From NCBI GenBank assembly GCA_964446735.1, contig CAYUQB010000003.1:40897-101284 (forward strand): DNA of 60,388 nt, written 5' to 3'. Both the position numbers and the translations under genes were made by a program. Numbering within the stretch: the first letter of the stretch is position 1; every line of letters begins with the position of its first letter. The notes under the pieces were generated by a model. It saw only the letters and a program-made list of their open reading frames with translations. It was not told the origin of the DNA and did not search any database. The DNA comes from an uncultured Candidatus Saccharibacteria bacterium (GTDB taxonomy: Bacteria > Patescibacteriota > Minisyncoccia > Phycocordibacterales > Phycocordibacteraceae). Shown in pieces: positions 12,383-16,337 of this stretch.

Positions 12383-15193
12383 CTATGAGAAGAGTTGTAG
12401 CAAATCGTCGTATTCGGACGGCTCTCCGTTGCGCCACCTTCCCGTGAGTAATTCTTGAACGACTTCCTCGAGCGTTGCGAGGAGGTCAGCTCGAGTCTCG
12501 CTCGTGAGCTCGACTGGGTACTCTCTCACCTGCTCGGGACCGACCTGGATAATGCTCGCAGAATTTGGCTGGTGGGCATTCTCGCGCAGAAGCAAATCAT
12601 AGAATGCAAGCTGACGAGCGTACTTCTCGTCCTTGATATGTACATCACTTGAGGTTTTGAAATCTATGATCCGCTCGCCGTCAGGCAGCTCGAAGACTGC
12701 GTCCACCTTCCCTTGAAGCAAAATGGGTGTCCCCGCAATTGAACGAGTGTGGGTAAATACTTTCTCTATCGCACTGGTCTCGAGTGCACTTCCCTCAGCG
12801 ATGTAGCGTGCAAGGCTCTCACGTGCATGGGTGGTCACTCGTTCAAATGCAACGTTCCGAGGAAGGAGCGAGCGAGCGAGGCACCCCGATAGAGCAGCAA
12901 ACGCCCGGTCCTCACTTCTTGTTTGGAGATATTCCGCGATACCGGCATGCACGGCTGAACCGATAGCTGTTGCGGGTGTCTCGGGCTCGTGAAGTCGTAG
13001 TATCCGTCGTGCAAAGAACGTCGGTGGAGATTCTAAGTACTCATTGAAGGCTGAAGGTGAGAGGCCTTCTTCGGTAAGGAAGCGATGAACAAGATCATTC
13101 ACCACCGCTGAAGGTTCGATAGTGGTATGGATGAGCGGGAGCGACTCGGAGGCAGGAGTGATGCGTGGGAGGTGGTCGGGAATAAGGAGTGAGGGTGGCG
13201 TATCGCGTCCTTCACCGCTTTCTGTTGCATAGGAGAGTACGACCTCATCTTTGGCACGGGTAAGCGCGACATAGAAAAGCTTAGTAATGTCCTCGAGGGT
13301 TCGTGTCTGATCGACTGGCGAAGGAATCTTTGCAGGAAGACCACCTTTCTCCCACTGTCGAGCGGTGAGGCCAGCGATGAATACCTGCTCAAATTCCATC
13401 CCTTTTGCCTTATGCGCAGTAATGATTGTCACCTTCCCTTCCGCGTGGGTCCTGCTCGACTTCACCGATTCGAGCCCATGCTCGTTTGCATGGGTGAAGG
13501 CACGCACAATTTCTATAAAGCTCTGGTTCGGATCGCGGGCGACGAGTTCCTCAATATGCATGAAGACCCGTCGCATAAGCTCGATATCTTCAAAGTGCTC
13601 GGGATGAGACAGAAGGTAGGCACGGGCTCCCGTAGCAGCAAGCATGCGAGAGAGGAGCGAGAGTGGTTGCTCTGATAGCGCCTGAGCTTGCAGATCACGG
13701 ATTGTTGCACTCACCGTTGGGTACATCTGTTCAAGTGCAGCCCAGAGTTCACGATCGCGGTTCTTTAAAAGAAGTTCAGCGCGAGGAGCGAGATCCATGG
13801 GCCACCATGGTGCAAGGAGCGTTTCGCGGAGTGCTGCAAGATCGAGTGGATTGGCTACCGCACGCATCGTTGCAAGCACCGCGCGTAGTATCGGACGAGA
13901 TGCAAGCATGACTTCCCCGGCTCGGAGTACCGGAATGTTTTTTGCGAAAAGGTGTTGTGCGAAAAGATCGGCCGTTGCGTTTCTGCTGGTGATTATCGCA
14001 ATTTCGTGGGGAGGTCTCCCTGCATGTATCGATTCTTCGACGAGATTCGCTATCTGATCACGTTCAGCGAGAGGGTCTGGAGCCTCCAGAAGTGAGAGTG
14101 TTGCCTGTCCGCTTCGTGTTGCAGAAAGCTTTGTGTGCTCGCCGGTCGCCGCGGGCACCGCTTGAATAAGGCCGTGCGCGGTATCCAGGATACCCTGCAA
14201 AGAGCGGTAGCTATCTGCGAGATGGATGACTTCGGTGCGTGGATAGTGCTCGACGAATGTTTTGAAGTGCGAAGAATCAGCACCCTGGAAACGATAGATG
14301 GCTTGCTTTTCATCACCCACTACAAAGAGGTTGGGGTGATCGTCGTATGCAAGCGTATCAAGGAGTGTGTGTTGCAGTGCATTCGCATCCTGATGTTCAT
14401 CCGCAAGAATGTATTGGTACTGCTCCTGTACTGACGCTTTCACGTCCGCATCGTGTATGAGCCCATCCACAGCAATCCGGAGTACGTCCGCAAAGTCATA
14501 GACGTTCCGTTCATCTTTCAGTGCCTCGTATGCCTCGATGAGTCGCGCAGCTTCAGCTCCCTTTAAAAGTCGCTCCAGCTTCTTTTCTCCTTCGGGCTTG
14601 AGCTCTCCTTTCTTCTCGCCACGAACATAGAGAAGTGATTCATCGGCTCGTATGCGAGCGCCTTCGTGTTCAAGCCAGGCACGGTACTCAGTGAGCGATA
14701 TGCGTTCACGCACGAGATCGTCCCGGAGTCGGGCAAGATCGCGCAGATAGAAGAACGGTGACTTAGGAGTGCGGAGCGCAGAAAGCTCCTCGGTTTCGAG
14801 CACCTCACGCCACAAGAGCGTGGTCTCAACATCTCCCGCCAGCCGCTTACCACGCGCTTCGAGGAATGAATCAGGATACGTAGAAAGGAGGTGTTCGGCA
14901 AAGCCGTGGAATGTCGAGATGAAAACCTCACGAGCAACCGTCTCACCTATGAGCTCTGCTAAGCGATGACGCACCGTTCGAGCAGCTGATTCGGTGAATG
15001 TGAGAACTAGGACATTGGATGCGTTGGCTTGTGTCCGTCGCAGGATGTTCGCGATACGAAGTGTGAGAATGTGTGTTTTTCCAGTTCCAGGGCCAGCAAT
15101 GACAAGTACTGGTCCTTCCACTGTATCTACAGCCTTCTTTTGGGCTGTATTCAGCCTTTCGTATGCGGCCGTAAAGGCCTTTTCATCTGGCAT
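12383..15193 (-). CDS. UvrD/PcrA-like helicase fused to a C-terminal PD-(D/E)XK nuclease
   Basis: AGPGTGKT, DEHQD, VGDEKQAIYRFQGA, TAHKAKGMEF, FYVALTRAK; GKVD...IIDFKT. Confidence 0.9.
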   Translation of the reverse strand: MPDEKAFTAAYERLNTAQKKAVDTVEGPVLVIAGPGTGKTHILTLRIANILRRTQANASNVLVLTFTESAARTVRHRLAELIGETVAREVFISTFHGFAEHLLSTYPDSFLEARGKRLAGDVETTLLWREVLETEELSALRTPKSPFFYLRDLARLRDDLVRERISLTEYRAWLEHEGARIRADESLLYVRGEKKGELKPEGEKKLERLLKGAEAARLIEAYEALKDERNVYDFADVLRIAVDGLIHDADVKASVQEQYQYILADEHQDANALQHTLLDTLAYDDHPNLFVVGDEKQAIYRFQGADSSHFKTFVEHYPRTEVIHLADSYRSLQGILDTAHGLIQAVPAATGEHTKLSATRSGQATLSLLEAPDPLAERDQIANLVEESIHAGRPPHEIAIITSRNATADLFAQHLFAKNIPVLRAGEVMLASRPILRAVLATMRAVANPLDLAALRETLLAPWWPMDLAPRAELLLKNRDRELWAALEQMYPTVSATIRDLQAQALSEQPLSLLSRMLAATGARAYLLSHPEHFEDIELMRRVFMHIEELVARDPNQSFIEIVRAFTHANEHGLESVKSSRTHAEGKVTIITAHKAKGMEFEQVFIAGLTARQWEKGGLPAKIPSPVDQTRTLEDITKLFYVALTRAKDEVVLSYATESGEGRDTPPSLLIPDHLPRITPASESLPLIHTTIEPSAVVNDLVHRFLTEEGLSPSAFNEYLESPPTFFARRILRLHEPETPATAIGSAVHAGIAEYLQTRSEDRAFAALSGCLARSLLPRNVAFERVTTHARESLARYIAEGSALETSAIEKVFTHTRSIAGTPILLQGKVDAVFELPDGERIIDFKTSSDVHIKDEKYARQLAFYDLLLRENAHQPNSASIIQVGPEQVREYPVELTSETRADLLATLEEVVQELLTGRWRNGEPSEYDDLLQLFS

Positions 15194-15261
15194 TCCACTA
15201 TTCTATCGTGAGGTGGAGGTGGAAAGAAATTAGCGAGGAAAAAATTGTTTGGATTTATATG

Positions 15262-15358
15262 AAAACGCAAAAACCCCGAGATATCTCGGGGGTTTTGCGT
15301 ACCCGTTGCCAGCTTAAGAATTCATTAGCTGGGGAGGGCCTTTCGGCCACGGGTACAT
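15262..15358 (-). ncRNA. Candidate stand-alone small RNA (three-way junction plus intrinsic terminator)
   Basis: TTGACC-16-TATAAT promoter; GUACCCGU/ACGGGUAC, GGCC-GAAA-GGCC and CCAGCU/AGCUGG helices; terminator 15300-15265; no ORF. Confidence 0.65.
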
Positions 15359-15363
15359 AAGGC

Positions 15364-15391
15364 ATTATACACGCGTAATATGAGGGGTCAA
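15364..15391 (-). promoter_or_regulatory. Near-consensus sigma70 promoter driving the candidate sRNA
   Basis: TTGACC (15391-15386), 16 nt, TATAAT (15369-15364). Confidence 0.7.
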
Positions 15392-15556: not shown

Positions 15557-15871
15557 ATGAAGAACACTGATCTCGACGCCCTCATTCGGGCCGCGATTAG
15601 AGACTGCATCGGTGTAACCTGCGTTCGCTTGTCGCTTGAAATCGACGGCCTCGTCTACGAGTTCGTGTCCGACGAGGGCATTATTGAAAAGGGCCGGCTC
15701 GCAGGCAAGACTCGCCTGAAAGTTGGAGCCTTCTTCGAACTCTGTGACCAGCAGACCGGTGATCGATTCACCTGGCATTGGAAAAGAACGCACTGGAGCC
15801 GGAAGTGCAGGAGCACTTCCGGAAAAGGGACTCTGACGATTCCTGACCACACCCACCGCTACCATCTATGA
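15557..15871 (+). CDS. Hypothetical protein, 104 aa (orphan unit)
   Basis: TTGACT-16-TAGTGT promoter, SD GGAGGG, hairpin 15876-15903. Confidence 0.6.
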   Translation: MKNTDLDALIRAAIRDCIGVTCVRLSLEIDGLVYEFVSDEGIIEKGRLAGKTRLKVGAFFELCDQQTGDRFTWHWKRTHWSRKCRSTSGKGTLTIPDHTHRYHL

Positions 15872-15875
15872 GACA

Positions 15876-15903
15876 CACGCCCGTCGGGAGACCGACGGGC
15901 GTG
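15876..15903 (+). terminator. 12-bp hairpin with GAGA tetraloop
   Basis: CACGCCCGTCGG-GAGA-CCGACGGGCGTG. Confidence 0.7.
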
Positions 15904-15977
15904 CTCACGCTCGACAGATGAGCGGGACAGCGTTATAAGGAAGATCGGCTTCAGCTTTTTGAAGGGAGTATCTATCT

Positions 15978-16337
15978 ATGGAGGATCTCCACACCATACG
16001 TGCGCAGGAGGGCTTCTACGAGAAACTGGCGTCCTACATCGATCAAGGCCTCCACTCGGGCCAGATCTATCGTCGGTTGGGCGAGGACTTTCCGAACGCC
16101 ACCTTGCCGCGTTGCGTGAGCGGTATCAACACCTGGCTTTCCACGCGCAAGACCTGGCAGACGTTCGTCGACAAGCTCGGACGCGAGAGGACGGAAGTCC
16201 TCTGGGCGAAGCACCAGTCTCGCCTGCGCGTCTGGCTCGGTAGGCGACACGAGCCACAAAGCCTCGACCAAATGCTGGGACTCGCCCCGCCAGACGAGGT
16301 CCAGCCCAGGTTTAGCGAGCGCCTTCGCTACGGCTAA
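15978..16337 (+). CDS. Hypothetical protein, 119 aa (orphan unit)
   Basis: TCGACA-17-TATAAG promoter, SD AGGGAG, hairpin 16363-16390. Confidence 0.6.
   Translation: MEDLHTIRAQEGFYEKLASYIDQGLHSGQIYRRLGEDFPNATLPRCVSGINTWLSTRKTWQTFVDKLGRERTEVLWAKHQSRLRVWLGRRHEPQSLDQMLGLAPPDEVQPRFSERLRYG

Follow-up and report, generated by a model that had tools for sequence, protein, structure and literature searches.

The window analyzed here is a 60,388-nucleotide stretch of contig CAYUQB010000003.1 from an uncultured Candidatus Saccharibacteria bacterium, and it carries on its minus strand a small RNA (sRNA) element. The element is predicted to be an independently transcribed RNA gene of ~95–100 nt, and comparative data place it in a previously uncatalogued family of three-way-junction RNAs of Patescibacteria. 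At 15 of 15 other loci of this family, the RNA lies beside a convergent gene for a basic protein of 125–160 amino acids (aa). The window RNA is almost certainly a solo member of this family of RNA–protein cassettes, as judged from sequence comparison. The cassette itself may be a toxin–antidote-like module, a reading to which we assign a rough probability of 0.4–0.5. The RNA would then serve as the antidote or regulator of a partner protein that has an LPD3-like fold and is possibly an RNase, and the window copy would be an orphan.

The element is sequentially composed of a promoter, three helices (P1, P2, and P3) that meet in a junction, and an intrinsic terminator:

15391..15262, minus strand: whole sRNA element, comprising promoter, three-way junction, and intrinsic terminator
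15386..15391, minus strand: −35 hexamer TTGACC, with a 16-nt spacer to the −10 hexamer
15364..15369, minus strand: −10 hexamer TATAAT, with the predicted RNA start at P1 or immediately before it, ~7 nt further on
15299..15356, minus strand: three-way-junction core of 58 nt, subtype A, from the fold and the family covariance model
15349..15356, minus strand: 5′ strand of P1, GUACCCGU, whose partner strand is 15299..15306
15337..15348, minus strand: hairpin P2, GGCC-GAAA-GGCC, with a GAAA tetraloop that is invariant in 16 of 16 sequences
15333..15336, minus strand: junction strand J2/3, CUCC, the sole unpaired part of a motif described earlier as anti-Shine-Dalgarno (anti-SD)-like
15309..15332, minus strand: hairpin P3, CCAGCU/AGCUGG, with the 12-nt loop (L3) AAUGAAUUCUUA, from the fold and the family alignment
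15307..15308, minus strand: junction strand J3/1, CA, invariant within subtype A
15299..15306, minus strand: 3′ strand of P1, ACGGGUAC, pairing with the 5′ strand
15262..15298, minus strand: intrinsic terminator GCAAAAC-CCCCGAG-AUAU-CUCGGGG-UUUUUGC-GUUUU, directly 3′ of P1

The promoter matches the sigma-70 consensus at 11 of 12 positions. The terminator is called on both strands by a terminator scan and is bidirectional in form, owing to its symmetric tracts of A and U. The minimum free energy fold of the element consists of the three-way junction and the terminator (−48.6 kcal/mol, z = −7.8), and none of 200 dinucleotide shuffles is equally stable. An earlier, sequence-only reading of this DNA had described a stand-alone three-way-junction small RNA with its own promoter and terminator, and the anatomy agrees with that description in position and strand. 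The same reading had recognized no known riboswitch, signal recognition particle RNA, 6S RNA, transfer-messenger RNA (tmRNA), or ribozyme in the element. Consistent with this, an Rfam 15 scan of the whole window returned no match at gathering thresholds, and a permissive local scan of the element (E ≤ 10) gave only terminator-driven noise of at most 21.7 bits. No tRNA or tmRNA gene was found in the window. The statement that the element holds no open reading frame (ORF) is nearly, but not fully, correct. Two ORFs, one of 36 codons (15365..15255) and one of 14 codons from an AUG at 15358, do overlap the RNA, but neither is conserved among its homologs.

Homologs were collected both from the RNA and from its partner protein. 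A pattern scan of metagenome contigs, with the loops and junction fixed and the stems left free, gave 10 matches, 7 of them distinct. The RNA-first and protein-first searches together yield 16 distinct family sequences including the window, the 15 others coming from Patescibacteria metagenomes and genomes. All share their own promoter, the same three helices, and an adjoining terminator. The homologs from the pattern scan have promoters of the form TTGAC(A/T)-N17-TATAAT or similar and a transcript start at P1, and a TTGAC(A/T/C) box is visible upstream of most of the 15. The −10 box of the homologs lies 6–7 nt before the first G of P1. The host DNA of the pattern-scan homologs ranges from 36% to 48% GC. 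The contig names of L032 and L036 point to the Hainich groundwater wells, for which metatranscriptomes have been reported (PMC12960796).

The three helices are maintained by compensatory change. Covarying homologs had been named in the sequence-only reading as a check on the RNA, and the 15 homologs supply them. In a 14-sequence alignment, 99.2% of the cells are standard pairs and 8 of the 20 base pairs are changed on both sides. None of 500 shuffles reaches the observed pairing values, and sliding the partner strand lowers pairing to 24–48%. Across the family, five of the nine P1 pairs show changes on both sides. A hand-segmented count over the 16 sequences finds a single non-canonical cell among 297, and RNAalifold independently predicts the identical junction. 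Three features fix the transcribed strand, namely the promoter, the G–U pairs, and the GAAA loop, which is invariant. A family covariance model (R1), built from 14 sequences with the window sequence among them, identifies exactly one copy in the window, at 15299..15356 on the minus strand (85.6 bits, E = 1e-21).

An Rfam scan of six homologous loci detects only RNase P RNA and tRNA, both elsewhere in the loci. A class A RNase P RNA gene (L053, 881..1227) lies ~1.8 kb from a cassette of subtype B, described below, and a tRNA lies ~2.2 kb from that of L039, with no evident link in either case. Pattern scans of viral contigs return chance terminator matches only, or nothing. Targeted literature searches retrieved no description of the three-way-junction RNA or of an LPD3-linked RNA. 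Patescibacteria (Candidate Phyla Radiation) make up a large, mostly uncultivated share of bacterial diversity, and, to our knowledge, almost no regulatory RNAs have been described for them. The RNA family delineated here covaries strongly and has a fixed partner protein.

The association of the RNA with the partner gene is seen from either direction. Starting from the RNA, a convergent gene for a protein of 124–139 aa ends at the RNA terminator in 6 of 6 other distinct loci. Starting from the protein, close homologs of the partner form 36 clusters among 5.8 billion proteins, all named ones being from Patescibacteria, and the RNA is present convergently in 10 of 10 fetched loci, including those of a second, divergent protein subfamily. 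The partner stop codon is located 16–38 nt after the 3′ end of P1 in 15 of 15 loci. The two genes share a symmetric terminator hairpin, and the stop codon falls either within its loop, as is often the case, or at its far edge. The 3′ ends of the RNA and the partner gene form an antisense overlap of ~20–40 nt. The C-terminal tail of the partner, KTKKPKP, is the sRNA terminator (U-tract and stem) read on the other strand, as seen at the partner gene 3′ ends of L029–L052 (for example, L033, 3563..3600). Thus, part of the partner protein sequence is dictated by the structure of the RNA on the opposite strand. Each partner gene is leaderless: its −10 box lies 6–8 nt before the ATG, and no Shine-Dalgarno (SD) sequence is present. 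A role of J2/3 CUCC in blocking the partner SD was ruled out on this ground.

The cassette has sharp limits. In L042 and L051, the RNA cores are 100% identical and the proteins are 81% identical, and the DNA can be aligned only from the protein start codon to the RNA −35 box, the flanks being unrelated. These limits indicate that the RNA–protein pair is a discrete unit of ~500 bp that occupies differing sites. Its neighbors vary from housekeeping genes, such as those for MreB, NusG/SecE, FtsW, and MurJ, to toxin–antitoxin (TA) and mobile genes. The TA and mobile neighbors, which are frequent, include a PemK/MazF toxin, a nucleotidyltransferase and HEPN pair, a UPF0150 (HicB-like) protein, a weak MazE match, and an rve-family integrase; the loci concerned are L032 (~2 kb around the cassette), L045 (725..1674), L030, L033 (~1 kb beyond), and L039 (4630..4803). 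A 165-aa protein from an NCBI metagenome-assembled genome (MAG), P0396, matches the ParE toxin (PF05016, E = 7e-8) over residues 7–68, and the rest of it corresponds to the C-terminal two thirds of the partner. This protein probably represents a rearranged or disrupted cassette beside a type II TA gene.

The RNAs fall into two subtypes that differ in their unpaired elements. Subtype A, which includes the window RNA, contains (C)UCC in J2/3, AAWGAAUUCUUA in L3, and CA in J3/1. Subtype B (L049, L053, and L055) contains CGU in J2/3, AAGGAUUACCUA or a longer hairpin in L3, and AGG or AAAG in J3/1. P1, P2, and the GAAA loop are common to both. The subtype B RNAs accompany the divergent protein subfamily, marked by an ‘FWSVMP’ motif. 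The unpaired RNA elements therefore co-vary with the protein subfamily, as predicted by direct and specific RNA–protein recognition. L3 is tentatively assigned a structure of its own. Rather than an open loop, it probably forms an A·A mismatch, a 3-bp extension, and an AAUU tetraloop, since AAG/CUU in one subtype is replaced by AGG/CCU in the other.

The partner protein is basic, with an isoelectric point of 9.3–10.5. Its invariant residues are Tyr14, Cys22, Phe31, Gly35, His38, Tyr41, Arg45, Arg47, Gly112, Ser118, and Met120. An AlphaFold2 model based on a 30-sequence alignment (predicted local distance difference test score 87.7, predicted template modeling (TM) score 0.78) is composed of helices followed by a five-stranded sheet. 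In a Foldseek comparison with predicted viral structures (BFVD), the top matches are LPD3 domains of phage polyvalent proteins (probability 1.0, TM score ~0.6). The Pfam LPD3 profile (PF18798) covers the full length of the partner with 21–22 bits (E ~2e-4), compared with a gathering score of 27 bits, and precomputed PF18798 matches exist for about a dozen partner homologs. LPD3 is known from polyvalent proteins of phages and conjugative elements, and the partner matches it weakly by sequence and best by predicted fold. Whereas LPD3 domains sit in giant injected proteins, the partners are stand-alone chromosomal proteins of Patescibacteria. The paper that defined the LPD domains called their precise functions elusive, and noted that LPD3 occurs together with PBECR RNase and RelA-SpoT domains in prophage proteins of Helicobacter (PMC5512222).

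The best fold match in the PDB is weak (E = 0.03, TM score 0.43–0.50) and involves a chain, either toxin or immunity protein, of the CdiA-CT/CdiI Kp342 complex (6CP9). The toxin of this complex is a BECR-fold tRNase (PMC9086364). BECR-fold RNase toxins resemble the partner in their helices-then-sheet order and in conserved residues of the Lys/Tyr/His/Arg/Ser type, but display no sequence-level relationship to it. On the basis of this weak match, the partner may be an RNase. Searches with the partner sequence against PDB, NCBIfam, and PADLOC returned nothing significant. A profile search of 1.84 billion representatives recovered 1084 partner-family clusters at 50% identity (E ≤ 1e-3), and nearly all of the 150 clusters listed are stand-alone proteins of 80–210 aa. 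This family of ~1000 clusters is currently annotated only as ‘hypothetical’.

The window RNA stands alone. No partner homolog was detected by tblastn in the 60-kb window. Hidden Markov models (HMMs) of the partner built from 30 and 284 sequences gave best E values of 1 and 3.7, respectively, against the six-frame translation of the window, and hhalign found no profile similarity between the partner family and the two orphan ORFs adjacent to the RNA. The 70–73-nt spacer between the RNA and the downstream helicase gene contains no recognizable remnant of a partner 3′ end, as its alignment to L037 is no better than that of shuffles (p = 0.34). A ‘KTQKP’ resemblance in the spacer was rejected as a remnant, being forced by the terminator sequence itself. 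On the plus strand, a 50-codon GTG ORF antisense to the RNA (15208..15360), whose middle part reads KIVWIYMKTQKPRD, is superficially similar to the partner C terminus FLSVM..KTKKPK. Its homology to the partner family is unsupported by HMM and by a DNA alignment test. The RNA itself is well preserved. A 47-nt core is identical to that of L037, P1 differs by two compensated pairs, and the structure, near-consensus promoter, and terminator are intact. The solo copies seen amount to one RNA, that of the window, and no protein.

Toxin–antidote modules are typically small and tightly linked, insert at variable sites, and lie in neighborhoods rich in TA genes. These features, together with the co-variation of unpaired RNA elements and protein subfamily, suggest that the cassette acts as a toxin–antitoxin or conflict module, in which the RNA would be the protective or regulatory half. 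Two further lines support this reading: the only element of the cassette found without its counterpart is the RNA, never the protein, as would be expected of an antidote, and the RNA has a near-consensus promoter. Most likely, the RNA would bind the protein directly and in a subtype-specific manner, with contacts made by hairpin P3, the junction, and the GAAA loop, which is invariant. In addition, the complementary 3′ hairpins of the RNA and the partner mRNA may provide control at the mRNA level, as in the par locus of pAD1. The window copy would be an orphan antidote RNA that was either left after loss of the protein gene or kept as immunity.

Several points weigh against a toxin–antidote function. 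The fold match behind the RNase assignment is weak. The partner family, with its 1084 clusters, is large, so that a non-toxic, lineage-wide ribonucleoprotein (RNP) is conceivable. The window covers 60 kb of a 101-kb contig, and a partner could be encoded elsewhere in the genome. The counts of solo and paired copies are small. Finally, the architecture fits neither the canonical type I nor the canonical type III TA systems.

The RNP is the main rival to the antidote, although we regard it as rather unlikely. In this view, the LPD3-like protein would serve a cellular function specific to the lineage, with the RNA as its cofactor, scaffold, or substrate. The two genes would stay adjacent so as to be co-expressed, and the partner of the window RNA would lie outside the 60 kb. 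Such a complex would agree with the strict co-occurrence of the two genes, the tracking of protein subfamily by RNA subtype, the basic nature of the protein, the large size and Patescibacteria-restricted distribution of its family, and the greater conservation of the RNA core relative to the protein. It is harder to reconcile with a genomic context that is variable and island-like, with the sharp cassette edges, and with a close subfamily of only ~36 clusters. An RNP also has no evident need for the tail-to-tail overlap of the 3′ ends, and the window RNA lacks the adjacent partner seen at every other locus.

The layout of the cassette resembles that of the type I par loci (Fst/RNA II) of Enterococcus and other Firmicutes, in which convergent promoters, one shared bidirectional terminator, and complementary 3′ hairpins are likewise present (PMC7472228). 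Control could in principle be purely antisense and type I-like, acting only through the shared terminator by pairing of the RNA 3′ hairpin with the 3′ end of the partner mRNA, with the three-way junction as a stabilizing 5′ structure and the window copy as a functionless relic. This is quite improbable, even though the promoters converge, the shared terminator contains or abuts the partner stop codon, and RNA I and RNA II of par are arranged in the same way (PMC7472228). Within a subtype, no variation is seen in the junction, the GAAA loop, or L3, and there is a switch with the protein subfamily, neither of which a passive structure would need. Furthermore, par has 5′ complementary repeats of the DRa/DRb kind, whereas the cassettes are devoid of them. 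A second antisense site was sought between L3 and the first 45 nt of the partner mRNA, and complementarity is at background in 15 of 16 loci. The exception is L029, where the loop AAUGAAUUCUU is fully complementary (11 bp, −11.8 kcal/mol) to AGAGAAUUCAUU in partner codons 4–7; this is probably a coincidence arising from the palindromic GAAUUC.

The cassette departs from par in other respects as well. The par toxin is a 33-aa hydrophobic peptide, whereas the cassette partner is a basic α/β protein that is modeled as soluble. The cassette RNA, unlike par, contains a conserved three-way-junction domain that bears no relation to the mRNA. A further contrast with par is the complete lack of a partner for the window copy, which nevertheless keeps a perfect structure, promoter, and terminator, as would not be expected of a relic. 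Antisense overlap with a shared terminator, by which type I systems are recognized, is found across the family and is inapplicable to the window copy.

In ToxIN, a structured RNA directly neutralizes a small RNase-like protein encoded next to it. The cassette may share this logic with the type III systems ToxIN, CptIN, and TenpIN, but its organization is different. Type III antitoxins are tandem repeats that precede the toxin gene in the same orientation and are processed by the toxin, whereas the cassette RNA has one copy of a three-way junction, is transcribed from a promoter of its own, and is convergent to the protein gene. The cassette protein is LPD3-like rather than ToxN/AbiQ-like, and PADLOC models give no match to it. 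A bolder and more doubtful form of the toxin–antidote reading holds that the RNA and an LPD3-fold RNase constitute a new RNA-antitoxin class that is widespread in Patescibacteria, and that the solo window RNA is a retained immunity or ‘anti-addiction’ gene. A single structured RNA, possibly a mimic of the natural RNA substrate of the toxin, would then neutralize the tail-to-tail encoded RNase directly and with subtype specificity.

If the cassette is a toxin–antidote module, it would represent a new architecture between the type I and type III TA systems, and orphan copies such as the window RNA would be explained. The LPD3 domain found in polyvalent proteins of phages and plasmids would also gain a function that can be tested, either RNA binding or RNase activity; under the bolder reading, this would be the first function for the domain.

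The comparative data also bear on the function first proposed for the window RNA. The sequence-only reading had suggested a C-rich sRNA that pairs with the GGAGG(G) leaders of SD-led accessory genes and silences their mRNAs, or else one that supplies anti-SD function in trans. The junction region indeed reads CCCUCCCC, and complementary SD sites exist at 2176, 18406, 50133, 15557, 3144, 41518, 47866, and 8405, the one at gene 2176 being 10 nt long. However, such sites are no commoner than expected by chance. The k-mers of the 12-mer UGGGGAGGGCCU were matched to the window, with the locus masked, and to 200 dinucleotide shuffles. Observed versus expected complementarity is 37 versus 45 ± 8 for k = 7, 8 versus 9.4 for k = 8, 2 versus 1.7 for k = 9, and 1 versus 0.23 for k = 10 (p = 0.18). 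Any SD is complementary to UGGGGAGGGCCU, because its complementarity covers the SD core GGAGG. The preference for GGAGGG that had been pointed out is present and mild: the base after GGAGG is G at 9 of 24 sites in SD position, compared with 23 of 136 GGAGG sites elsewhere. This bias could reflect a CCCUCC 16S tail or composition; the window contains no rRNA.

The structure of the motif argues against pairing with SDs too. Within AGGCCCUCCCCA, only CUCC is unpaired, and its flanks are strands of the covarying helices P2 and P3. CUCC is replaced by CGU in subtype B, and genomes with leaderless cassette genes conserve the RNA nonetheless. What the family is linked to is a single, specific protein gene rather than regulons of SD-led genes. 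RNAIII and 6C RNA are, like the window RNA, small and stand-alone, with a C-run complementary to G-rich SDs. Their C-rich motifs lie in apical loops, whereas the C-run of the window RNA is mostly helical, with 4 nt in the junction; here, moreover, targets are not enriched and the motif is subtype-specific. Action of the window RNA on SD sequences, whether by silencing or in trans, is thus not supported and is disfavored, leaving it highly improbable. The comparison thereby removes a tempting but unsupported idea of a trans-acting anti-SD RNA.

The window is chromosomal DNA of a Parcubacteria/Paceibacteria type, and the genes around the sRNA encode HisRS, a DsbA-like protein, an AI-2E transporter, and a UvrD/PcrA helicase with a PD-(D/E)XK nuclease domain. 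Two features flank the RNA directly:

12383..15193, minus strand: gene for the UvrD/PcrA-nuclease helicase, on the same strand as the sRNA and 70–73 nt beyond the sRNA terminator
15557..15871, plus strand: 104-aa ORF, divergent from the sRNA, starting 165 nt beyond the −35 box and without a Pfam match

The helicase gene follows the element at a short distance on the same strand, the element ends in a terminator, and an AUG occurs 5 nt after the −10 box of the element. On these grounds the element could be a cis-regulatory leader (riboswitch or attenuator) or a leaderless micro-ORF, MYPWPKGPPQLMNS, controlling the helicase, but the comparative data effectively refute both forms. The helicase gene has its own −10 box, TAGAAT, at 15205..15200 on the minus strand, 6 nt before the ATG, and is leaderless. 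This box had been noticed in the sequence-only reading, and the leaderless TAGAAT-N6/7-ATG start is kept in 10 helicase orthologs (69–75% identity), with the DNA further upstream being unrelated. None of the 10 orthologous genes has an sRNA-like element upstream, and the element is therefore not a conserved helicase leader. The family covariance model likewise finds no copy in 22 helicase-relative loci. None of the RNA homologs has a helicase as its downstream gene, and inspection of the sequences reveals no alternative pairing that could act as an antiterminator. The AUG is absent from the homologs, P1 beginning with GUG in most of them, and the P1 ‘codons’ covary as RNA, which removes the micro-ORF.

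The nearest relatives of the helicase all come from Patescibacteria MAGs and share 68–76% identity with it; none closer than 76% was found among the 5.8 billion proteins. The contigs found with identical window proteins are short and do not cover the RNA. On the other side of the RNA, the 104-aa ORF is the first of two SD-led ORFs, of 104 and 119 aa (15557..16337, plus strand), that are divergent from the sRNA and have no Pfam match. A G+C-rich hairpin without a U-tract follows the 104-aa ORF (15876..15903). The sole other contig found with an identical 104-aa protein, a 1.5-kb Logan contig (L024), also carries the 104-aa and 119-aa pair.

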